The position numbers were made by a program, and so were the translations under genes. From an uncultured Bacilli bacterium (lineage in GTDB: Bacteria; Bacillota_I; Bacilli_A; RF39; UBA660): DNA of 61,015 nucleotides. The DNA lies in NCBI GenBank assembly GCA_947628345.1, contig CANQZM010000002.1, positions 1 to 61,015 on the forward strand, written 5' to 3'. Position 1 is the first letter of the stretch; every line of letters starts with the position of its first letter. This document shows, piece after piece, positions 416 through 17,918 of this stretch. The notes under the pieces were generated by a model. That model was not told where the DNA came from, made no database searches, and worked only from the letters and a program-made list of their open reading frames with translations.

Positions 416-3367
416 ATGTATTTAAAGGAAATAGTCGCAAGTGGTTTTAAATCTTTTGCAGATAAAATTAATATAAAACTGGAAAATAAAATAACTTGTA
501 TTGTAGGACCTAATGGAAGTGGTAAAAGTAATGTTGTTGATGCAGTAAGATGGGTTTTAGGAGAACAATCAGTTAAATCACTACGTGGTGAAGGATCTAT
601 GAGTGAAGTTATTTTTTCTGGTAGTAAGAGTAGAAATCCCTTAAATGTAGCTTGGGTTGAATTAATTTTTGATAATACTGATCATTACTTAAATATTCCT
701 TATACAGAAATTTCTATTAAAAGAAGGGTATATCGTAGTGGAGAAAATGAATACTTTTTGAATAACGAAAAATGTCGATTAAAAGATATAACCAATCTAC
801 TTTTAGATAGTGGAGTTGGAAAAGAGTCTTTTAATATTATTTCACAAGGTGAAGTAGAAAGAATTCTTAGTAGTTCTCCGTTAGAACGACGTCTCATTTT
901 TGAAGAAGCTGCGGGTATTTTAAAATACAAAAAAAGAAAAGAAGAGGCACTTCATAAACTTGATCGTACTCATAATAATTTGGATAGAGTAAATGATATT
1001 ATTAGTGAACTAGAGATACAATTAACTCCTTTAAAGGAGCAAAGTGAAAAAGCCAAGGAATATCTAGAAAATAAGGAAGGTCTAGACAAATATGAAGTAG
1101 CCCTTTTAGCTTATGACATAGAACGATTATCTAATGAAGTTGAAAAAGCAAAAGAAAGAAAAGAACAACTAGAAAAGGAAATAATGGTGGTAACTAATGA
1201 ATTTTCAACTAGTGATGCAAAAGCTATTGAAGATAATAACAATTTAGAAAAATATGAACAAGAATTAGTAGCTATTAATACTCAATTAGTTTCTGTAGCT
1301 TCTTTGGTAGAGCGTATCAATGGTGAAAAGAATCTACTAAAAGAGCGAGCTAATACTAGTAGTACGGATATTACTCAAAAAATTCGTGATTTATTAGATA
1401 AAAAGGGTAATATAGAAAAAAGTAAAAAGTTAATTGATACTTCTTTAGAAACGGAAAGAAAAAACCTAGATACAATTAATAAAGATATAGATAATTCTAA
1501 AAATAGGCTAGATACTCTTAAAAAAGAAAAACTTATGGAACATAATGAATATTCTAGATTAGACAAAAATTTAATTAATCTTAATCATCGAATTGATTCT
1601 CTTATGTTAGAAATTGATCAAGGAGGTAACCTTCCTAGTAGTGTTAAAAATATCTTAAATAATTCTGAGTTGATAGGAATTCATAATACTCTTGGAAATA
1701 TTATTAATATTGAAGATAATTATATCAAAGCTTTAGAAGTAGCTATTGCTTCAAGTAAAAATTTTATTATCACTGAAAATGAAGATGCGGCTAAAGATGC
1801 GATTAATTATTTAAAAGATAATCATCTAGGTAGAGCTACTTTCTTTCCTTTAACTGTTATAAAACCTCGATATGTTGATAATGAGGCTTTAGCTAAAGTT
1901 AAAAATAGTACTGACTTTATAGCTGTTTTATCAGAACTAGTTGATTATGATAATAAATATAAAAATATTATTAGTAATCAATTAGGTACTACTTTAGTAG
2001 CAACAGATATTAATGCTGCGATTAGATTAAGCAAATTAATCTCTCATCGTTATAAGATAGTTACTTTAGCGGGTGATGTGATTCATGTTGGTGGCTCTAT
2101 GTCTGGAGGTAGTTCTTACCAAAGTAAAAGTATTGTATCTTTAAAACAAGAATTAATTACTACTCAGTCAAATAAAAAAGAAACTGAAATTAATTTACAA
2201 GCTATTACTAATAAAATTACACAAATTGATACAGAAATGAGTAGGTTAAATGAAACTTATTTACAATTAGCAAATCAACAGGTTATTATTAAAGATTTAA
2301 TTAATAGTAAGCAACAAGAATTAGATAATTTAGATAAAGAATTAGAAGATTTAAATAGAGAAATTTCTAGTTTTAAGGGATTAGAAGCTAACAATTTAAG
2401 CGAGATGGAGGAAAGTTTAATCAATCAATATCATGAACAAAATGCTTTAAAAGAAGAACTACTGTTGAGGCAAAAGAACCTATCTAATAAGATAGAAGAT
2501 TTAAAAGAAAAAATTGAGATGAGAATGGTTGATGATAAACAAAAAAACTTTAATTTAAAAAAATTAGAGAAAGAATCTAGACAATTAGAAATAGATATAA
2601 CACGTAATGATGTTAAATTAGATAATATGTTAACTACATTAAATGAAGATTATTCTCTTACTTATGAAAGAGCTAGAAAAGAGTACTTTTTAGATATCGA
2701 AGTCGAAGAAGCTCGTTTAAAAGTTAATACTTATAGGTCTAATATCAAAAGAATAGGTATGGTTAATTTAGCTGCCATTGATGAATTTGAAAGAGTTAAT
2801 ACTAGATATGACTTTCTTACTAAACAAAAGGAAGATTTACTTACTGCCGAAGATACTTTATTAGAAATAATGAATGAAATGGATGAAGTAATGATTGAGG
2901 AGTTTGAAACAACTTTTGAAAAAGTAAGGTGTGAGTTTAAGCAGGTTTTTAGAGAATTATTTAATGGTGGTAATGCAGATTTAAAATTAACTAATCCTGA
3001 TGATTTATTAACAACTGGAATTGAAATAGTCGCAAGTCCTCCTGGTAAAAAATTAACTACTATTAATTTATTATCTGGAGGAGAAAAAACTTTTACTGCC
3101 ATCAGTTTATTATTTTCTATTTTGAATGTTAAAACTGTACCATTTTGTTTATTTGATGAAGTAGAAGCTGCCTTAGATGAAGCCAACGTTGAATCTTTTG
3201 GTAAATATCTATATAATTATAAAGATAAAACTCAATTTTTAATTATAACCCATAAAAAGAAAACTATGGAATTTGCCGATGTTTTATATGGTATTACAAT
3301 GCAAGAATCTGGAGTTTCTAAATTGGTCAGTGTTAAATTAAATGATAAAGAATCAACTAATGGTTGA
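416..3367 (+). CDS. smc: Chromosome segregation protein SMC (short, 983 aa)
   Basis: Walker A GPNGSGKSN, long coiled-coil arms, a central hinge, signature LSGGEK and Walker B LFDEVEAALD. Confidence 0.95.
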   Translation: MYLKEIVASGFKSFADKINIKLENKITCIVGPNGSGKSNVVDAVRWVLGEQSVKSLRGEGSMSEVIFSGSKSRNPLNVAWVELIFDNTDHYLNIPYTEISIKRRVYRSGENEYFLNNEKCRLKDITNLLLDSGVGKESFNIISQGEVERILSSSPLERRLIFEEAAGILKYKKRKEEALHKLDRTHNNLDRVNDIISELEIQLTPLKEQSEKAKEYLENKEGLDKYEVALLAYDIERLSNEVEKAKERKEQLEKEIMVVTNEFSTSDAKAIEDNNNLEKYEQELVAINTQLVSVASLVERINGEKNLLKERANTSSTDITQKIRDLLDKKGNIEKSKKLIDTSLETERKNLDTINKDIDNSKNRLDTLKKEKLMEHNEYSRLDKNLINLNHRIDSLMLEIDQGGNLPSSVKNILNNSELIGIHNTLGNIINIEDNYIKALEVAIASSKNFIITENEDAAKDAINYLKDNHLGRATFFPLTVIKPRYVDNEALAKVKNSTDFIAVLSELVDYDNKYKNIISNQLGTTLVATDINAAIRLSKLISHRYKIVTLAGDVIHVGGSMSGGSSYQSKSIVSLKQELITTQSNKKETEINLQAITNKITQIDTEMSRLNETYLQLANQQVIIKDLINSKQQELDNLDKELEDLNREISSFKGLEANNLSEMEESLINQYHEQNALKEELLLRQKNLSNKIEDLKEKIEMRMVDDKQKNFNLKKLEKESRQLEIDITRNDVKLDNMLTTLNEDYSLTYERARKEYFLDIEVEEARLKVNTYRSNIKRIGMVNLAAIDEFERVNTRYDFLTKQKEDLLTAEDTLLEIMNEMDEVMIEEFETTFEKVRCEFKQVFRELFNGGNADLKLTNPDDLLTTGIEIVASPPGKKLTTINLLSGGEKTFTAISLLFSILNVKTVPFCLFDEVEAALDEANVESFGKYLYNYKDKTQFLIITHKKKTMEFADVLYGITMQESGVSKLVSVKLNDKESTNG

Positions 3368-3434
3368 TTTTTTAAATGGGATAGTTTATCATAAAAAGGT
3401 GTTTTAAAAGATTAAAATAATTAACAAATGATAG

Positions 3435-4943
3435 GTGATTAATGTGATAGATGAAAAAAAACTAGAAAAAATTTATGAGGCCGTATCTGATAATGTAGTA
3501 TTAACAAAACAAGAATTAATTAGTTATGGCTTTAAAGAGGAGGAATTAACTGAATTAGTTAAGAGAGGAATACTATTAGAAAATGATAATGATTATTCTT
3601 TAAAAAAAACTAAAGGTTTATTTTTGTATGGGAAAAAATATATAAATGATGATAAAGATAAAGCTGTTACTATTTTTGAAAAATGTGTGGAAATTAATCC
3701 TAAAGATTATTATGCTATTTTTCAATTATTTTTAATTAATATTCAGAATGAAAATTATGAAAGTGCTTTAAAATATTTTGATATTTTATATGAAAATAAT
3801 AATAATCGTTTTTATAGCTCAAATTACAATTTATATTTATATTTATTAAATTTTATTACTTCTTTACCAGATAAATATATTAATATTGTGAAAAATTTAA
3901 AAAGTGATGATTTACTAGTTTATCCATGGGATAAACGATATAATAATACACGTATCCATAATAATATGAGAATATCTATTTTTAATCAAAAGTTTACTCA
4001 AGCTAAAAGTCAATTATTAAACTGTGCAGATAAAAATCATTTTAATATATCTGAATATTTGATAAACTTATTGTTAACTCAAGCAATAGCTATTGATAGT
4101 GAGATGGAACAATTACTTAGTGCTAATTTAACTAGAGTTTATGATAAAGGTATATCAATTTTAAAACCACTAACAGTACCAGAAACTACAGCTATAGGTA
4201 AAATGGTAGAAAAAACACCTAATTTAACTTATTTTGAAATTGAATTTGAACAGGTTAAGAGAATAGTATTAAAAAATAAATTAGATCCAGTAGAAAAAAT
4301 TGATATGTCTAAGTTATTAAAATTAGCTTACCAATCATTTCAAAATAGAGATTATGATGATTGTATTAATAACTACCGAAAAATATTAAAAAATTGGGAG
4401 AAAAATCCTAAGGTATTTATATTTGCTAATCTTGGGTTAGCTTATCTAGAAAAAGAGGATTTTGCAACTGCACTTGATTATCTTACAGTAGCAACAGCTT
4501 TAAATAAGGGATTAGAAACTAAGTATGATTTTTCTAAACAAATTAGTTATATAAGTAAAGAATGTCTAGAAGAATATGAAATTTATGATAATTTTATGGA
4601 AGAATTTAATAAACCAGTTGATCAATATTATGGTATAAATAATATTTCTGATATTATTGAGTTAGTTTCTAATGGTATTAATTTAAATGAAGCTTGCGAA
4701 AGATTAAATTTAACTGAAGAACAGAAAAACATAGTGACACTAATTTTTGCTAGAGAATGGTATACATTAGGGAATTATCAGGTTGGAGATAGCTATTTAA
4801 AAATGGTAGAAAAGACTCCTAATAAGTCTAAATTTACTAATTCATTATTAACAGAGATACGTAAAAATAAGAATTTTTATAAAAATAGAATTGATGATAA
4901 TTATCAGTCAATTCTAGTTAAAACTAAGACGAAAATAAAATAA
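3435..4943 (+). CDS. TPR-like repeat protein, function unknown
   Basis: 502-aa ORF with repeated A/Y/L-spaced helical motifs (NYESALKYFDILYE, DFATALDYLTVATALN). The start is ambiguous: GTG 3435, or GTG 3444 which sits behind AGGTGA. Confidence 0.55.
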   Translation: MINVIDEKKLEKIYEAVSDNVVLTKQELISYGFKEEELTELVKRGILLENDNDYSLKKTKGLFLYGKKYINDDKDKAVTIFEKCVEINPKDYYAIFQLFLINIQNENYESALKYFDILYENNNNRFYSSNYNLYLYLLNFITSLPDKYINIVKNLKSDDLLVYPWDKRYNNTRIHNNMRISIFNQKFTQAKSQLLNCADKNHFNISEYLINLLLTQAIAIDSEMEQLLSANLTRVYDKGISILKPLTVPETTAIGKMVEKTPNLTYFEIEFEQVKRIVLKNKLDPVEKIDMSKLLKLAYQSFQNRDYDDCINNYRKILKNWEKNPKVFIFANLGLAYLEKEDFATALDYLTVATALNKGLETKYDFSKQISYISKECLEEYEIYDNFMEEFNKPVDQYYGINNISDIIELVSNGINLNEACERLNLTEEQKNIVTLIFAREWYTLGNYQVGDSYLKMVEKTPNKSKFTNSLLTEIRKNKNFYKNRIDDNYQSILVKTKTKIK

Positions 4944-6249: not shown

Positions 6250-7986
6250 ATGAAAAAACAAATATTTATATTAATAATTTTAATATCTATAAGTACAGTC
6301 ACTGTATATGCTTTATCTAATAATTTTAATTTTGATACATCTAAATTATCATTTACCTCTAATAGTAAGAAAGCAAAAGTGGTTGATAACTTTAATAAAA
6401 ATTATAATTTAACTTATTCTATATCAAGTGAAAATAAAGAACTTGAAGAAGAAATAAAAAAACTTACAAAAAAGACAACTTATTTATTATTTGGTGGATT
6501 TAATAATACAGATGAAACAAGTGAAAATTATTATAAAAGACATAAAGATTGGTTCGATCTAAGATATAATCCAAAAGTTCCTGAAGTTCCAAAAGATGAC
6601 AAAAATCCTTTTGGATTAGATACTTCTAGTCAAGAATATAAAGATGATTTAGTATCAGGATTAGCTATACCACAAATATTTAATCAAGCAAATGAAATGG
6701 GATTACTTTACAATTCGTATGGTGATATTAGAGTAACATTTAATGATGACATTATAATAAGTTCTATTACCCTACCAAATGTAAAAATTAAAGAACAAAG
6801 TAAAGAAGATCCTATGAAATATGATTATATTGAGACAAATTATGTAATGTATTATTATTATAAAAAATTAAATGATGAATGGAAATTATATTATTTATAT
6901 GGCGAATCTACTGATGAAGTAAGTGATTATTTTAGTGAAATAGAATCAACCGAAACAAAAGAAACAATGGCAATCGCTCCATCTTATGAGTCAAAATTAG
7001 GTACGGTATATAGTTTTGAAAAATTAGAAAGTATGACTCAAGAAGAACTAAATAATGTTTATAATTCAAACATCAATAATATTGTATATTTAAATAGTTA
7101 TTACAATAATATGGTTGTTAGTTCTGCTAATGGGTTCTTTATTAATGATGGAATGATTGTAACTACATGGAATTTCATAGAAAAATCATTAATAGATGCT
7201 CAATATATAACAGTTAAGGATAGTAATTTAAATACGTATGAAGTTGATGGTATAGTAACGGCTAATCCAGAGACTGATGTAGTTGTTATTAAGCTCAAAA
7301 AATCAGATACACCTGTTGCAAAAATAGGTGATTCGAAATTGTTAAAAACAGAAGATCCTGTAATAACAATTAGTAGTAAATCTAGTGCAGGTGCAATGGT
7401 ACAAACAGGTATAGTAATTTCTAATGATGATTATATTCAAACTTCAATTCCATTATTAAATCAAGATGAAGGAAGCCCACTTTTAAATCAAAATGGAGAA
7501 GTAGTAGGGATAAATACATCTAAATCTACAAATGCTAGTGTATCTATTGCAATAAATTCAGAGGTTTTAAAGGAAATTCAAAATAAATTTTCAAATATTA
7601 ATTTTAAGGATATAAAATGTATTTCTTTTGATGAATTGAAAGAAAAATATTATTATACCAAATATAACGATGAAAGTATTATTAACAATATTCCTAAGAA
7701 TAAGTGGAAAGAATATTCAAAAATTGGTAATATTGAAAAAACAATTAATTTAGAACTAGTTAAAGCAAGTTATAAAGATGGTATTGTAAGTTTAAGATAT
7801 AAAAATGGTATAACAAAATATATAAATAGTATGCAATTGTCTATTAATTTTAAAGAACAGTTATTAAAAGATGGTTATAAGTTAATAATGGATAATACTT
7901 CAAAGGCAATATATCAAAATGATAAATACCAAGTAATTATAATGGATGAGTTTGATTATTTAATAGTAGTGATGGTGAAGTTATGA
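6250..7986 (+). CDS. Secreted or membrane-anchored protein with a C-terminal trypsin-like (S1C/HtrA-type) fold that appears catalytically degenerate
   Basis: Signal-like N-terminus MKKQIFILIILISISTVTVYA. The segment GFFINDGMIVTTWNF...DVVVIKL...DEGSPLLNQNGEVVGINT lines up with the trypsin-like peptidase pattern. The start overlaps the upstream stop. ATG 6250 follows AGGTGA. Confidence 0.6.
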   Translation: MKKQIFILIILISISTVTVYALSNNFNFDTSKLSFTSNSKKAKVVDNFNKNYNLTYSISSENKELEEEIKKLTKKTTYLLFGGFNNTDETSENYYKRHKDWFDLRYNPKVPEVPKDDKNPFGLDTSSQEYKDDLVSGLAIPQIFNQANEMGLLYNSYGDIRVTFNDDIIISSITLPNVKIKEQSKEDPMKYDYIETNYVMYYYYKKLNDEWKLYYLYGESTDEVSDYFSEIESTETKETMAIAPSYESKLGTVYSFEKLESMTQEELNNVYNSNINNIVYLNSYYNNMVVSSANGFFINDGMIVTTWNFIEKSLIDAQYITVKDSNLNTYEVDGIVTANPETDVVVIKLKKSDTPVAKIGDSKLLKTEDPVITISSKSSAGAMVQTGIVISNDDYIQTSIPLLNQDEGSPLLNQNGEVVGINTSKSTNASVSIAINSEVLKEIQNKFSNINFKDIKCISFDELKEKYYYTKYNDESIINNIPKNKWKEYSKIGNIEKTINLELVKASYKDGIVSLRYKNGITKYINSMQLSINFKEQLLKDGYKLIMDNTSKAIYQNDKYQVIIMDEFDYLIVVMVKL

Positions 7987-9680: not shown

Positions 9681-10523
9681 ATGAATTGTAAAAAATGTGG
9701 ATTTCCATTAACAGGGGATGACCAATTTTGTAAAAACTGTGGGGCAGCAGTATCTGCTCAAAATGAACAAAATAATATGCAACAACCAATTAATAATCAG
9801 ATGAATCAACAACAGTATCAAGCACCTCAACAAAATTATAATCAATCTTCATTTGAAAATGGATATAATCAAAACCCAAATCAACAACAAAATCCAAATG
9901 GAAGTTTTAAATATGTTATTATTGGTGTAATAATGTTAGTTGCAATAGTTGCATCAGTTATGATAACTAATATGATTAATAATAAAAATAATAATAAATA
10001 TGGTGATGGCTCAACTGATAATTCAGGACTTACAAAGACATCATCTAGCAAATCTTATAAAGTAAACTTTGAGGGATTTACATTTACTATTCCGGATAAT
10101 TTAGTTTATTCAGAACAAAATGGTGTATTACTTATTGGTAATGAAGAGGGTACTTGGGTTACCCAATTAGAGATAGCACAAGGAAGCTTTACACAATTGA
10201 AAAATAATAAAAGTCAACTATCTGTAATAATGCAACAAAATGGATATACGTGTAGCGCAGCAGAAGAAAAAACAATTGGAGGAGTAGAATTTATAACAAT
10301 GGAACTTGCCTATGGTGGACAAAAGGCAATTGAAGCTTTAGCAAGAGCAAATTCAATGTATTTCATAGGTGTTACAGCATATAATCAAGATAATGATATA
10401 GATTACAAATTGTTAGAAACAGTAGCACCTATTATTAATTCTGCTGAACAAATATCAGCTTCAAATAGTATTGCTCCAGAAACTTCATTTGATGTTAGTA
10501 AATTTTCTGAATTGGCTAAATAA
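9681..10523 (+). CDS. Zinc-ribbon protein with a Q/N-rich linker, one TM segment and an extracytoplasmic domain
   Basis: NCKKCGFPLTGDDQFCKNCGA, then a Q/N-rich stretch, then TM YVIIGVIMLVAIVASVMITNMI. RBS GAGAGGTAA lies upstream. Confidence 0.6.
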   Translation: MNCKKCGFPLTGDDQFCKNCGAAVSAQNEQNNMQQPINNQMNQQQYQAPQQNYNQSSFENGYNQNPNQQQNPNGSFKYVIIGVIMLVAIVASVMITNMINNKNNNKYGDGSTDNSGLTKTSSSKSYKVNFEGFTFTIPDNLVYSEQNGVLLIGNEEGTWVTQLEIAQGSFTQLKNNKSQLSVIMQQNGYTCSAAEEKTIGGVEFITMELAYGGQKAIEALARANSMYFIGVTAYNQDNDIDYKLLETVAPIINSAEQISASNSIAPETSFDVSKFSELAK

Positions 10524-10593: not shown

Positions 10594-11154
10594 ATGAATT
10601 ATATTTTATGGATTGTTATTGCAATAGTTATACTACTTATATTATATGTTGTAATAAGTTATAATCAATTGGTCAAATTAAATAATGAAACAAAAGAAGG
10701 ATTTGCTACTATGGATGTATATTTGAAAAAAAGATGGGATTTAATTCCTAACATAGTTGAAGTAGTTAAGGGTTATGCTAAACACGAAAAAGATACATTA
10801 AAAGAAGTAGTAGAAATCAGAAATAGTGTTAAATCTTATGATAAATTATCTGATGAACAAAAAATTAAAACTAATGAGGAAATTGCTGGTGGTATTACAA
10901 AATTAATGGCATTAGCTGAGGCTTATCCTGATTTAAAAGCTAATGAAAATTTTCTAAGCTTACAACAATCATTAAGTGGAATTGAAGATGAAATAGCTCA
11001 ATCAAGAAAATATTATAATGCAGTAGTTAGAAATTATAATAATAAAGTCGAAATGATACCAAGTAATATTGTTGCTAAAATGCTAGGATATAAAACAAAA
11101 GCCATGTTTGAAGCAACTGAAGCAGAGCGAGCAAATGTCAAGGTGAAGATGTAA
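10594..11154 (+). CDS. lemA: LemA family protein
   Basis: N-terminal TM segment followed by the typical LemA pattern (YNQLVKLNNE..., QSRKYYNAVVRNYNNKVEMIPSNIVA). Confidence 0.85.
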   Translation: MNYILWIVIAIVILLILYVVISYNQLVKLNNETKEGFATMDVYLKKRWDLIPNIVEVVKGYAKHEKDTLKEVVEIRNSVKSYDKLSDEQKIKTNEEIAGGITKLMALAEAYPDLKANENFLSLQQSLSGIEDEIAQSRKYYNAVVRNYNNKVEMIPSNIVAKMLGYKTKAMFEATEAERANVKVKM

Positions 11155-13301
11155 TGGCAAAAATATCCAAAATTGGAAATTTTATTGGGTACATTTGGGC
11201 ATTTATTATGTTCTTTGGTGTCCTTATAATGGGACTTGAAGAATTATTTGGTGATGATGTTAGTACCCAACAAACTGCTGATGGTTTTACAATTTCTTCT
11301 TATAATGTTGTGTTAGATGTAGGAGAAGATAATAAAATAGATGTTACCGAAAATATCACTGTTGATTGGTATGATGCACATCATCATGGCATCTATAAAT
11401 TTACCCCTTTATGGTTACAATATACTGATAAAAAAGGAGATACTATAAAAAGAAAAGCAAATATATCTAATTATCGTGCAGTTGGAGAAGTATATACCTT
11501 AGATACAGTAAAAAAGAAAGCAAGAATTAAAATTGGTGATGCTAACCAGTATGTAGAAGAAGGAGAAAAAACATATGTAATTAAGTATACATATGATATG
11601 GGTAAAGATCCTTATAAGGGATTTGATGAATTGATATTCCATGCCTATGGTGATTATTGGGGAACTGCAATAAAAAATGCTTCAGTTCAGGTAAATATGC
11701 CTAAAAATATTGAAGGATATAAAGTAAATTTCTTTACTGATAAATTTAGGAAAGAAGATGCTACAGATGTTGTTGATTATTCTATAAGTGGGAATACTTT
11801 GTATGCTTATTTTAATGAAGAGAAAAATTATCAAAAACAATTAAAAGACTATTGTAGTGATGAATGGAATCAAAATGAAGGTGGAACTTGTAATAAAGAA
11901 GACTTTGATTTATACTATAAACCATTAAAGGAATCTTTAACGTTAGATATAGAATTACCAGAAGGATATTTTGTGGGTGGTAGTTGGAATTATGGCTGGG
12001 GTTCTTTCATTATTTCAATGATCATATTTTTATTAACTGGATGGACCATTTATAAATGGATTAAGTATGGTAAAGATTACCCCAAAAAAGCTCAAACAGT
12101 TGAATTTTATCCACCGGATAATTTAAATGCTGCTGAAATTGGTTATGTATTTAACAAAAGACAAGCAAGCAAAAAATTTACAATTGCTTTAATTATTCAA
12201 TTAGCAAGTAAAGGATATATAAAAATAGATAATTTAAAAGATAAGGGTAATAATATTCAAATAACTAATTTAATTATAAAACCAAAAAAATTAGAAGATT
12301 TTGAAAAAACATTACCAAAACGACAAATAGAAGTAAAAAAATTAAAAGATGCTGATAATAATTTAAATCAAGCAGAAAATACTATGATGAGTTATCTATT
12401 TAAGAAAAGTAATACGAAATTATTAGAAACTAATATAGATAAATTCTTAGTTGTTAGAGATAAACTAGTAAGCGAAGGTTATATAGAAATTATTAATGAT
12501 AATGAGGAAGCAAGACTAAAAGATATAGAAGAGAAAAAATTAGCTTACGATAAGCAAGTTGAACAATATAATAAAAATATGGAAAAATACGCAGGAGAAT
12601 CAGCTAAATTACCAGAACTATCAAGTATGGAAGAAATTGTATATAATAGATTGTTTAATGATAATGACGTAATAATTTTAAGTGAGCATCATACTTTTTA
12701 TAGAGCTTTTGATGAAGTGTCTTCAAAATTAGATAGTAGCTTTAAAAATAAGGTTCATGATAGCAAAGCATCAAAACAAATTTATGGAGCTATTTTTAGA
12801 AGTATACTTATTTTAGTATTGAGCATAATTTCTTATAGATATGTAGAAGACTTAGATCCAAACTGGAGTATGTTATACTATTTAGCATTTATATGTAATT
12901 TTATAAATTTATTCTTTATGATATTTATGAAAAGAAAGACTGAATATGGTGAATATATTACAGCCAAAGTTAAAGGTTTTAGACATTTCTTAGTTACAGC
13001 TGAAAAGCCAAAATTAGAGGCATTGGTTGCTGAAAATCCACAATATTTTTATAATATTCTTCCATATACGTATGCTATGAATATCTCTAAAAAGTGGATA
13101 AAAAAATTTGAAAATATACCAATTCCTGAAATGGATATGGGAACATTTAACTATAATAGTAGTTATGCTTATTATACTTTATATGATAATGTATATTATC
13201 CTGAACCTGTTCATTCTTCAAGTAGTTGTTCTTCTTGTGGAGGAGGTTGTTCTTCTTGTGGAGGAGGTTGCTCTTCTTGTGGTGGTGGCGGTTCTTGGTA
13301 A
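11154..13301 (+). CDS. DUF2207-family polytopic membrane protein with a Cys/Ser/Gly-rich C-terminal tail
   Basis: ATG overlaps the lemA stop (TAATG). DUF2207-like N-domain (FTISSYNVVLDVGEDNKIDVTENITVDWYDAHHHGIYKF), about 4 TM segments, and the tail SSSCSSCGGGCSSCGGGCSSCGGGGSW. Confidence 0.8.
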   Translation: MAKISKIGNFIGYIWAFIMFFGVLIMGLEELFGDDVSTQQTADGFTISSYNVVLDVGEDNKIDVTENITVDWYDAHHHGIYKFTPLWLQYTDKKGDTIKRKANISNYRAVGEVYTLDTVKKKARIKIGDANQYVEEGEKTYVIKYTYDMGKDPYKGFDELIFHAYGDYWGTAIKNASVQVNMPKNIEGYKVNFFTDKFRKEDATDVVDYSISGNTLYAYFNEEKNYQKQLKDYCSDEWNQNEGGTCNKEDFDLYYKPLKESLTLDIELPEGYFVGGSWNYGWGSFIISMIIFLLTGWTIYKWIKYGKDYPKKAQTVEFYPPDNLNAAEIGYVFNKRQASKKFTIALIIQLASKGYIKIDNLKDKGNNIQITNLIIKPKKLEDFEKTLPKRQIEVKKLKDADNNLNQAENTMMSYLFKKSNTKLLETNIDKFLVVRDKLVSEGYIEIINDNEEARLKDIEEKKLAYDKQVEQYNKNMEKYAGESAKLPELSSMEEIVYNRLFNDNDVIILSEHHTFYRAFDEVSSKLDSSFKNKVHDSKASKQIYGAIFRSILILVLSIISYRYVEDLDPNWSMLYYLAFICNFINLFFMIFMKRKTEYGEYITAKVKGFRHFLVTAEKPKLEALVAENPQYFYNILPYTYAMNISKKWIKKFENIPIPEMDMGTFNYNSSYAYYTLYDNVYYPEPVHSSSSCSSCGGGCSSCGGGCSSCGGGGSW
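13227..13289 (+). repeat. 3 x 21-bp in-frame tandem repeat encoding CSSCGGG
   Basis: tgttcttcttgtggaggaggt occurs twice exactly (13227-13247 and 13248-13268). A diverged third copy, tgctcttcttgtggtggtggc, lies at 13269-13289. Confidence 0.9.
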
Positions 13302-14293
13302 AAAGATTTGTTTTACAATGGCATCTTAGTGAAAACTGTAATTTAAAATGTTTGCATTGCTACCAAGAATCTCATAAACCGATTCAATTAAAATATGAAG
13401 AGTTAGTTGAGATATATAATCAATTTAAAGAATTGTTAAATAAATTAAAGATGAAAGGCCATATAAATATAACGGGTGGAGAGCCATTATGTAATCCGCA
13501 TTTATTTAAAATTTTAGATCTTATAAAAAAAGATCAAGACTTAATTACTTTTTCAATACTTACAAATGGTACTTTAGTTACTGAAGATATGGCTAAAAAA
13601 ATAAAAGGTTATAATCCTTATTATGTTCAGGTAAGTTTGGAAGGTGGCAAAAAAACAAATAATTATATTAGAGGTAAAGGTACTTATGAAAAAATTGCAA
13701 AGGGAATTGTAAATTTAAGAAATCAAGATATTTTTACCTCTATCTCCTTTACTGCTACTAAATTAAATTATAAAGAATTTCCTAAAGTTATTAAATATGC
13801 AAGAAAATATAATGTTAATAATGTTTGGTCAGATAGATATATTCCACTAGGTGATTCTGAGGATAAAAATCTTACTTTAAATTATGAAGAAACTAGAGAG
13901 TATTTATCTATAATGAATAAAGAAAGAAACAAATTAAAAAAAATAAAAAATAATATTACTACAATATCAATGTATAGAGCCTTGCAGTTTCAAATGACTA
14001 ATGATTTTGCTTATGGTTGTACAGCTGGAGATACTTTATTAACAGTTATGGAAAATGGTAATTTAGTTCCTTGTAGAAGAATGCCAATAGTAGTAGGTAA
14101 CTTATTTGAAAACAGTATGTATAATTTATATAAAAATAATAAATTGTTAAAAGAATTAAGAAAAAAGAAGATTCCAACTGACTGTTTGGATTGTGAACAT
14201 GCTGAAATGTGTCATGGAGGATTAAAGTGCCTAACTTATGCAATATATAAAGATTTAAATCATAAAGATGTTGGCTGTAATATAAATAATTAA
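13295..14293 (+). CDS. Radical SAM enzyme with a SPASM/twitch-type C-terminal Cys cluster
   Basis: CNLKCLHC (CxxxCxxC) in VLQWHLSENCNLKCLHCY. C-terminal CTAGDTLLTVMENGNLVPC (G-x4-C) plus CLDCEHAEMCHGGLKC. The likely start is TTG 13295, behind GGTGGTGG and overlapping the DUF2207 stop. The 13226 track start is only the Cys/Gly repeat read in another frame. Confidence 0.85.
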   Translation: MVKRFVLQWHLSENCNLKCLHCYQESHKPIQLKYEELVEIYNQFKELLNKLKMKGHINITGGEPLCNPHLFKILDLIKKDQDLITFSILTNGTLVTEDMAKKIKGYNPYYVQVSLEGGKKTNNYIRGKGTYEKIAKGIVNLRNQDIFTSISFTATKLNYKEFPKVIKYARKYNVNNVWSDRYIPLGDSEDKNLTLNYEETREYLSIMNKERNKLKKIKNNITTISMYRALQFQMTNDFAYGCTAGDTLLTVMENGNLVPCRRMPIVVGNLFENSMYNLYKNNKLLKELRKKKIPTDCLDCEHAEMCHGGLKCLTYAIYKDLNHKDVGCNINN

Positions 14294-17756: not shown

Positions 17757-17918
17757 TTATTGTGCCCAACGTGTTCCAATCACGATAACTAATAAAATAA
17801 ATAATACTAAAATAATTGCATAAATAGAGCTATTATTGTTATTACCACAACAACTATTTTGGTAATACATTTGTGGATATGAGTTTTGACAACATGATCC
17901 ACCACCATAGTAATACAT
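17757..17918 (-). CDS. Unlisted 53-aa Cys-rich tiny TM protein, YjcZ-like
   Basis: GGAGG lies 8 nt before the ATG. Product: MYYYGGGSCCQNSYPQMYYQNSCCGNNNNSSIYAIILVLFILLVIVIGTRWAQ. The AIILVLFILLVIVIG core matches the tiny-TM YjcZ-type pattern. It falls below the ORF-track size cutoff. Confidence 0.6.
   Translation of the reverse strand: MYYYGGGSCCQNSYPQMYYQNSCCGNNNNSSIYAIILVLFILLVIVIGTRWAQ

Follow-up and report, generated by a model that had tools for sequence, protein, structure and literature searches.

A contig of an uncultured Bacilli bacterium of the RF39 lineage (CANQZM010000002.1, positions 1 to 61,015) carries three plus-strand genes linked by overlaps, which encode a LemA protein, a DUF2207 membrane protein ending in a cysteine-rich tail and a radical S-adenosylmethionine (SAM)/SPASM enzyme. 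The whole 61,015-nucleotide stretch, hereafter the window, has a GC content of about 25%. The relation between the cysteine-bearing tail and the enzyme encoded beside it is the subject of this report.

Three overlapping genes

The first gene, lemA (10594-11154), encodes a protein of 186 amino acids (aa) with one N-terminal transmembrane (TM) segment and a Pfam LemA match of 182 bits, above the cut-off. It lies directly upstream of the gene for a 715-aa, Gly-tailed DUF2207 protein (11154-13301), the arrangement that marks a LemA-DUF2207/TPM pair. The DUF2207 protein exceeds the cut-offs of both of its Pfam families, with 72 bits for the N-domain (PF09972, cut-off 24.4) and 93.9 bits for DUF2207_C (PF20990, cut-off 33), and it has no NCBIfam match at all, to TIGR04222 (cut-off 43 bits) or any other model. 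The two genes share a single nucleotide in the junction ...ATG TAATG GCA, where the TAA stop codon occupies 11152-11154 and the ATG start codon 11154-11156.

The second junction is tighter. The TTG start codon of the enzyme gene (13295-13297) lies within TCT TGG TAA, the final codons of the DUF2207 gene, and the resulting overlap, TTGGTAA (13295-13301), comprises the last DUF2207 codons and the stop. There is no intergenic space between these two genes in the window, and the sequence GGTGGTGG stands at 13281-13288, 6-13 nucleotides (nt) 5' of the TTG. Such an overlap would couple translation of the enzyme to that of the DUF2207 protein. The stored gene call for the enzyme (P0001, 338 aa) has six additional codons, consistent with an in-frame TTG at 13277. 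The start at 13295 is nevertheless favoured because most close homologues have a length of 329-331 aa, because the homologue P0091 begins 7 nt ahead of the DUF2207 stop in the locus that was read for it (L001), and because an identical 7-nt overlap is found where the tblastn match begins in 16 of 18 related genome loci. The same overlap is present in loci L300-L306. Both the chain of overlaps with its TAATG junction and the TTG start had been proposed in the preliminary description of this DNA, and the coordinates and junction sequences agree with it.

The DUF2207 protein does end in the Cys-rich sequence noticed earlier: translation of 13215-13298 gives a Cys/Gly/Ser tail, SSSSCSSCGGGCSSCGGGCSSCGGGGSW (residues 688-715), which reads (CSSCGGG)x3-GSW and is the proposed protein-borne substrate. 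It is encoded by a 21-nt tandem repeat of 3.4 copies (13225-13296; Tandem Repeats Finder score 109, 88% matches), each unit of which specifies the seven residues CSSCGGG. Four TM segments are predicted in the protein, at about residues 6-34, 281-303, 541-564 and 572-593, with 12 Lys and Arg residues on the predicted inner loops and none on the outer. The last ~120 aa, tail included, are accordingly predicted to be cytoplasmic, in agreement with the earlier reading of the TM order. The prediction comes from a crude, home-made script combining hydropathy with the positive-inside rule, which is clear-cut for this protein and unreliable for partner proteins with two TM segments or of the TIGR04222 family.

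The radical SAM/SPASM enzyme and its family

The third gene (13295-14293) encodes a 332-aa enzyme that belongs to the radical SAM superfamily (PF04055, 92.2 bits against a cut-off of 29.5) and to its SPASM subgroup (PF13186, 33.2 against 21.5). Residues 15-22, CNLKCLHC (13337-13360), form the CxxxCxxC motif that supplies the ligands of the SAM-binding [4Fe-4S] cluster; the motif, with C15, C19 and C22, is invariant in an alignment of 41 family sequences (A1). The SPASM region (14018-14278; Pfam match to residues 242-301) has the C-terminal arrangement C242-x12-G-x4-C260, C297xxC300x5C306x5C312 and C328, in which every Cys is invariant in A1 except C297, itself conserved in at least 90% of the sequences. 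The last spacing is x5, versus x3 in the SPASM 7-Cys motif C-x9-15-G-x4-C ... CxxCx5Cx3C ... C. The seven cysteines would serve two auxiliary Fe-S clusters. The CxxxCxxC and SPASM-like clusters described earlier are thus borne out by Pfam scores above the cut-offs and by Cys conservation throughout the alignment, which also shows motifs specific to the family: LQWH, W-DR-IP-G, RALQF, PCRRMP, GGLKC and KDPGC.

The family is sizeable. An exhaustive HMMER search over 1.84 billion representatives returned 437 clusters at 50% identity with E<1e-30, and at E<=1e-10 the enzyme has matches in over 2,300 protein clusters defined at 90% identity. The 120 nearest matches are at least 80% identical to it, and the nearest genome matches are metagenome-assembled genomes from rabbit, Hadza human gut and ruminant samples. 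No clue to a partner comes from gene fusion, as ten long members of the family (434-851 aa) carry radical SAM and SPASM domains alone; the one exception, with a GH95 fragment, is a likely chimera, and none is fused to DUF2207.

Comparison by HMMER with radical SAM/SPASM subfamily models gives no clean fit to any family with an unrelated substrate. None of the enzyme's 69 NCBIfam matches attains its own cut-off, and the same holds for 10 divergent representatives of the family. The leading scores are those of SbtM (145 of 350 bits) and the ACGX-system enzyme (143 of 400 bits), and a weaker group consists of haem d1 and haem b radical SAM enzymes (104-118 bits). The solved structures closest to the enzyme profile are those of SkfB, CteB and anSME. 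These nearest named families and structures, SbtM, ACGX, SkfB, CteB and anSME, all target Cys in peptides or proteins.

Just 14 residues precede the first cluster motif, from which it follows that the enzyme has no N-terminal RRE domain. This feature separates it from the sactisynthases SkfB (6EFN, 111 bits) and CteB (5WGG, 104 bits), which form thioethers between Cys sulfur and C-alpha and, in the case of CteB, bind a substrate Cys at an auxiliary cluster. Those enzymes have an N-terminal RRE of ~100 residues and act on leader peptides, and their alignment to the window enzyme begins past the RRE domains, at chain residues 113 and 98, respectively. anSME (PDB 4K36-4K39, 93 bits) is likewise a SPASM enzyme without an RRE, with its CxxxCxxC about 15 residues from the N-terminus, and here the profile match starts at chain residue 14. 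Its substrate is a full-length protein, in which it oxidises a Cys or Ser. In contrast to the anSME setting, neither a sulfatase nor a C/S-x-P-x-R motif lies near the window enzyme, which is accompanied by multiple Cys in a repeat; no anSME model is among the 25 best NCBIfam matches listed for it.

A low-complexity, regular Cys repeat beside a SPASM enzyme is also the hallmark of Haft's Cys-repeat systems (TIGR04340, TIGR04117, SCIFF/ranthipeptide PapB and the Cys-every-fifth CefB), and one Syntrophobacteraceae-type partner of the present family matches TIGR04117, the CXXX-repeat target protein, weakly. Most targets in these systems are short peptides, whereas those of the window family would be the tails of membrane proteins of 300-730 aa. 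Membership of the ACGX system (TIGR04340) was rejected at 143.2 bits against 400, the neighbouring repeat being CSSCGGG on a 715-aa protein, and membership of the PapB, StsB, AlbA and CefB maturases at 106, 70, 63 and 68 bits against 340, 625, 850 and 600, with no N-terminal extension in the window enzyme. SbtM (TIGR04082), the best-scoring named family, is a radical SAM/SPASM enzyme that converts Gly-Cys or Gly-Sec to a thio(seleno)oxazole, i.e. it targets Cys or Sec preceded by Gly, in a short peptide restricted to Geobacter and Desulfobacteria (PMC9204691). The window enzyme reaches 145.1 bits of the 350 required, aligns to model positions 199-497 of 516 only and lacks the SbtM N-terminal domain of about 190 aa, and it was not assigned to this family either.

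A classical cluster for a ribosomally synthesized peptide with post-translational modification (RiPP) was also rejected. The enzyme has no RRE, and no small precursor, peptidase or ABC exporter adjoins the pair in the window, where the absence of a separate precursor open reading frame (ORF) had been remarked before; neither a peptidase, an exporter nor a small precursor recurs beside the pair in those loci whose genes were read.

Cysteine tails beside the enzyme across genomes

With A1 reused as the query, a scan of 185,579 species-representative genomes yielded 80 enzyme loci at 31-88% identity, whose counts are not phylogenetically independent. In 66 of the 80, a protein encoded within about 1.1 kb has a low-complexity Cys/Gly/Ser tail at its C-terminus; the tail gene stands immediately upstream of the enzyme gene in 50 loci, downstream in 14 and convergent to it in 2. 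Among ORFs of at least 100 aa located more than 2.5 kb from the enzyme in the same 80 loci, comparable tails number 0 of 889, which argues that the adjacency is not due to chance. Carriers include gut Bacilli, Ruminococcus, Lachnospiraceae, Syntrophobacteraceae, Anaerolineales, Planctomycetota, Thiomargarita, Bacteroidales and archaea, so that the adjacency of a radical SAM gene is far from confined to the strain at hand. It is maintained at 33-46% enzyme identity, across phyla and into the archaea. The window-type tail itself occurs in 18 of 18 genome loci of the window's clade. An outgroup of six loci, the most divergent ones, has no tail gene and another context, e.g. a small PqqD-sized gene downstream.

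The partner proteins vary in architecture, and conservation among them is limited to the tail. Domain searches on 61 partners found DUF2207-N in 29, DUF2207_C in 26, TPM in 9, TIGR04222 in 20 (at E<=0.001) and a zinc ribbon in 1. Of ten partners scanned singly, seven score 70-118 bits for TIGR04222, with weak DUF2207_C matches in addition, which indicates that TIGR04222 and DUF2207 are related families. A joint alignment of the 61 has a mean column identity of 16%, and its invariant or near-invariant columns, the start Met aside, are C702, C706, C709 and G710, all in the tail. In a neighbour-joining tree, the enzyme clades correspond to tail classes. The class ending ...CSSCGGGGSW is found on DUF2207 proteins of uncultured gut Bacilli, the window's clade, and that ending ...CSSCGGGGAD on DUF2207-N proteins of Clostridia, mostly with two TM segments. 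Tails ending ...GSGGSSSF occur mainly on TPM proteins of Ruminococcus. A fourth class, of the ...CGGCGG type (...CGGGCGGCGG), is carried by TIGR04222 proteins of Anaerolineales, Planctomycetota, Syntrophobacteraceae and Desulfobacterales, and further by those of Thiomargarita and Beggiatoa, Bacteroidales, Armatimonadota and archaea. No third conserved gene able to supply another substrate was found across the loci.

LemA, which the preliminary description had joined to the system, does not belong to the conserved module. Its gene is present in 6 of the 80 enzyme loci. Within the window's own clade, it is missing from at least 6 loci in which the sequence extends far enough upstream. In the close relative at L001 (10681-13380), the pair is preceded by a UbiB/ABC1 kinase gene and followed by an abhydrolase-like gene and IS91 and IS110 transposases, different flanks which imply that the DUF2207-enzyme pair moves as a unit, without lemA. 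As far as gene content tells, the conserved unit is one of two genes, encoding a Cys-tailed membrane protein and a leaderless, RRE-free radical SAM/SPASM enzyme; the tail is disordered and C-terminal, with Cys at a two- or three-residue Gly/Ser spacing.

Sampling from the side of LemA and DUF2207 gives the complementary picture. LemA partners in Enterococcus, Parabacteroides, Priestia and Acetoanaerobium have tails rich in Gly/Ser and containing Phe or Trp (e.g. ...GGSFGGGSFGGGGASGSW); there is no Cys in them, and in these four genera no same-strand ORF of at least 150 aa with CxxxCxxC lies near LemA. In 80 IMG/VR loci, LemA stands beside 30 distinct Gly-rich tails, none of which (0/30) has two or more Cys or a member of the enzyme family beside it. 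When the final 125 residues of the window DUF2207 protein were used as query against the protein collection, 65 proteins with a Cys tail were returned, along with 54 that have a Cys-free version of the same ending (...GGGSSGGGSGGGGGGSW). At the Cys-free relatives (...GGGSGGGGGGSW), which share the DUF2207_C region and ...GGGGSW, both LemA and DUF2207 are present, with LemA upstream in all four proteins looked up, and no radical SAM gene was found (0/4 proteins, 9 places looked up). At the Cys-tailed relatives, the family enzyme is directly downstream in 4/4 (7 places), scoring 379-453 bits and with the 7-nt overlap. The contrast is small, four against four. Within the window's DUF2207 lineage, a Cys tail and an adjacent enzyme therefore do go together, as had been surmised.

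Some of these genes are called in pieces. In the Cys-free relatives of L292-L299, DUF2207 is called as two ORFs of 404-483 and 165-188 aa, which overlap by ~38 nt in L292 and L298; in L293 and L295, a gap lies between them. In L292, the split pair (2590-4038 and 4001-4561) is tandemly duplicated as a whole. The Cys-tailed gene of L300 is split in three. These splits may be assembly frameshifts, or the short query may have picked fragments.

A further sampling was anchored on the tail. The pattern C-G-G-G-C-x-x-C-G-G gave 120 metagenome matches, of which about 32 are usable C-terminal tails, many on short contigs; roughly three quarters of the 120 are chance, off-frame or non-terminal matches in high-GC DNA. 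Because usable matches are few and contigs short, the search provides existence proofs for radical SAM, MNIO or neither enzyme beside a tail, and not frequencies. The radical SAM enzyme follows a usable tail in L093, L116 and L167. An enzyme of the MNIO family (PF05114; DUF692, MbnB/TglH/ChrH) follows seven high-GC tails that are adjacent and passed the tail filter. Five MNIO ORFs directly downstream of such tails score 218-294 bits for PF05114, and a hidden Markov model (HMM) built from them adds three matches (L105, L164 and L201); in L164, the eighth MNIO locus, the match lies ~1.5 kb upstream of a tail that is carried by a 58-aa ORF. The same HMM detects no MNIO in the window, where none adjoins the tail gene, and none in the 80 radical SAM loci. 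To judge from organism names, radical SAM loci belong largely to anaerobes and MNIO loci to soil bacteria. Window-type tails gave no pattern match in viral contigs.

Other tails have other neighbours. L134 (JAEEGF011186687.1, reverse-complemented 23-1803) encodes a DUF2207 relative with 45% identity and a tail ending ...CSSCGGGCSSCGGGCSSCGGGSSW, whose gene overlaps by 7 nt a lipoprotein-like ORF with a WCRS motif and no Pfam match. L099, L137, L140, L157, L179, L182 and L207 contain ORFs of ~145-240 aa with Cys/Gly tails of other styles (e.g. ...GGCGGGCGGCGGGSCGGGSCGDDGCCGGCK), and neither an MNIO nor this radical SAM enzyme is found within these contigs. Upstream of the tail gene in L157 lies a gene for an Mrp/NUBPL-type Fe-S-delivery ATPase (296 bits).

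The tail as candidate substrate

The Cys tail of the DUF2207 protein is probably the substrate of the radical SAM/SPASM enzyme. This is the simplest reading because the tail is the sole feature common to the partner proteins, because the enzyme is absent at the Cys-free relatives looked up and because an MNIO can occupy the same position. Three samplings, centred on the enzyme, on DUF2207 and on LemA, point the same way, and the earlier suggestion that the enzyme acts on the tail of a full-length membrane protein rather than on a free peptide gains support from comparative genomics (66/80; 4/4 versus 0/4; 0/30).

The enzyme would bind the tail directly, probably via a Cys thiolate at an auxiliary Fe-S cluster. 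Cleavage of SAM to a 5'-deoxyadenosyl radical would be followed by hydrogen abstraction from residues of the tail, and several of its cysteines, each of which follows Gly or Ser, would be converted to modified residues. Still attached to the membrane protein, the product would form an appendage that binds metal or is redox-active. For the chemistry, a Cys-derived 5-thiooxazole is the preferred candidate, by analogy with SbtM and the MNIOs and since every tail Cys is preceded by Gly or Ser; Cys-to-C-alpha thioether crosslinks of the sactionine type, suggested by the closest solved structures, SkfB and CteB, would be nearly as likely.

The idea of a protein-borne Cys tail has a precedent in a proposal of 2025 on MNIOs (PMC12452194, Microb Genom 2025). 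There, ~40% of the Cys proteins without signal peptide that are encoded upstream of MNIO genes were found to be TIGR04222 membrane proteins, and their Ser/Gly tails interspersed with Cys were proposed as MNIO protein substrates; the MNIO is absent from a third of TIGR04222-bearing genomes, and for characterised members of the family the substrates are RiPP precursor peptides, which are modified mostly at Cys (PMC12452194). MNIOs install a thiooxazole-type heterocycle, the type that SbtM forms, in bufferins and related metallophores (PMC12668002). The two systems share a full-length multi-TM protein with a disordered Ser/Gly tail bearing Cys, an adjoining gene for a Cys-modifying, RiPP-type enzyme and a substrate proposed to be protein-borne; 20 of the radical SAM partners are TIGR04222 proteins themselves, and the MNIO pairing was reproduced in the eight metagenome loci. 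They differ in the enzyme, an iron-dependent oxidase there and an unrelated, oxygen-sensitive radical SAM/SPASM protein here, in the hosts, which here are mostly anaerobes by name, and in the partners, which here include DUF2207 and TPM; the MNIO-TIGR04222 reaction is itself a proposal. With MNIO genes beside Cys tails in aerobic lineages and radical SAM genes in anaerobes, the radical SAM family appears to be an oxygen-independent counterpart of the MNIO enzymes at the same position. A fuller version of this proposal is decidedly more tentative: that, as an anaerobic MNIO counterpart, the family modifies the C-terminal tails of full-length DUF2207, TPM and TIGR04222 membrane proteins by an oxygen-independent reaction of the thiooxazole or thioether type.

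Two known kinds of system are combined here, one in which a radical SAM maturase accompanies a Cys-repeat target and one in which an MNIO accompanies a protein-borne Cys tail. The MNIO study mentions no DUF2207, TPM or LemA, and radical SAM solely in a table footnote and in reference titles (PMC12452194). The pairing was found to be undescribed in a literature search that covered DUF2207, TIGR04222, LemA/TPM together with radical SAM, and SPASM together with Cys-rich tails of membrane proteins, with incomplete coverage that leaves the absence of the pairing from the literature unproven.

Several observations weigh against the tail as substrate or against details of the mechanism. Eight ingroup enzyme loci have no adjacent tail gene, some of them on short contigs, and L071, from a complete genome, has none in the 17 kb read around the enzyme. 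Conversely, other Cys/Gly tails adjoin an MNIO or, within their contig, neither enzyme, and the window-type tail of L134 is followed by its unrelated 205-aa ORF in place of the enzyme, which that genome might encode elsewhere. A Cys tail alone thus does not imply the radical SAM enzyme, and beyond the window's lineage the correlation expected from the preliminary description has exceptions. The tails of TIGR04222 partners with four TM segments are placed outside the cytoplasm by the crude topology prediction, with which PMC12452194 agrees, and modification would therefore be required before membrane insertion. Finally, the SbtM score (145 bits) is no better than that of ACGX (143 bits) and comparable to those of the sactisynthases, and therefore does not constrain the type of reaction.

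The strongest alternative, though an unlikely one, is that the tail is a metal- or Fe-S-binding module, acting as an electron conduit, cluster donor or membrane anchor, while the enzyme modifies a lipid, a cell-envelope precursor or another protein. The CxxC/CxxxC spacing with small residues resembles metal-binding motifs, and the Cys/Gly-tailed protein of L157 is encoded beside an Fe-S-delivery ATPase. Against this reading, the MNIO found at the same position requires no Fe-S donor and belongs to a family whose characterised members modify RiPP peptides, mostly at Cys; among named families and solved structures, the nearest relatives of the radical SAM enzyme are all Cys-directed maturases of peptides or proteins; and the loci share no third gene from which another substrate could come.

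Less likely again, the membrane protein could serve as a very large leader, from which the modified tail is cleaved and released as a free Cys-rich RiPP. Large, protein-like RiPP leaders such as NHLP and Nif11 are known from the general RiPP literature, and the tail is a discrete repeat module generated from a tandem DNA repeat. But no peptidase or exporter recurs beside the pair in the loci read, the chain's neighbours in the window are unrelated genes, and Cys-free tails are a general, retained feature of DUF2207/TPM proteins, which argues for a function while attached.

It is very improbable that the adjacency reflects shared regulation or inheritance alone, with an unrelated, anSME-like or cofactor-biosynthetic substrate. 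The haem d1 and haem b matches and the eight ingroup loci without an adjacent tail gene would fit such an explanation; the persistence of the adjacency at 33-46% identity, across phyla and archaea and with varied partners and gene orders, does not, nor do the absence of the enzyme at all four Cys-free close relatives looked up and the failure to attain any named family's cut-off. Least probable of all is the 53-aa protein at 17757-17918 (minus strand), put forward earlier as an alternative substrate, or some other small uncalled peptide: the protein has two CC pairs in its Gly/Asn/Ser/Tyr-rich N-terminal part and a C-terminal TM helix, but it lies 3.5 kb away on the opposite strand with three genes intervening, bears a weak likeness to tiny sporulation proteins of the YjcZ type (19.8 bits, just below the cut-offs), has no small Cys-rich counterpart beside the enzyme in the gene lists of L001-L003 and L300-L306, and the junction of the DUF2207 and enzyme genes leaves no space for an uncalled peptide.

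DUF2207, TPM and LemA proteins are very common bacterial membrane proteins without known biochemical function, and their Gly-rich tails have been ignored. An enzyme tied to Cys-bearing tails offers a handle on them, as it points to the tail as the seat of function, which can be purified and analysed. If the tail is indeed the substrate, the Gly-rich tails of LemA-partner proteins would be functional appendages, from which some lineages have derived metal-binding or redox modules tethered to the membrane; the carriers would include abundant uncultured gut Bacilli and Ruminococcus. The 2025 idea of MNIO-modified, protein-borne Cys tails would be extended to anaerobes via a non-homologous enzyme, adding another oxygen-dependent and oxygen-independent pair comparable to FGE and anSME for sulfatases. 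The sizeable radical SAM/SPASM family defined here has a predicted substrate class and no requirement for a leader or an RRE, and RiPP genome mining, which typically seeks short precursors, would miss protein-borne Cys tails.

Additional genes were noted around the pair. Just 5' of lemA in the window, a plus-strand gene (9681-10523) encodes a protein of 280 aa whose N-terminus bears a zinc ribbon and which also contains a Q/N-rich stretch and a TM segment; it has no Cys tail, and the radical SAM partner in L070, which likewise starts with a zinc ribbon, has one. In several Desulfobacterales, Thermodesulfovibrio, Spirochaetota and Betaproteobacteria loci, a ~250-aa protein is encoded between the enzyme and TIGR04222 tail genes (L038:4969-5730, L049:1240-2001, L047:9040-9798 and L044:10232-10963, the last on the minus strand). 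Three of these four have weak matches to nucleotidyltransferase folds (PF01909, PF18765), and the protein may be an accessory component of TIGR04222-type modules. In L073, upstream of the family enzyme, an ORF at 6833-7255 that ends in ...GGCGCGCSS followed by a long poly-Asn run is preceded by a 586-aa ORF with an initial CxxxC motif, which is likely, from that motif, to encode another radical SAM enzyme.

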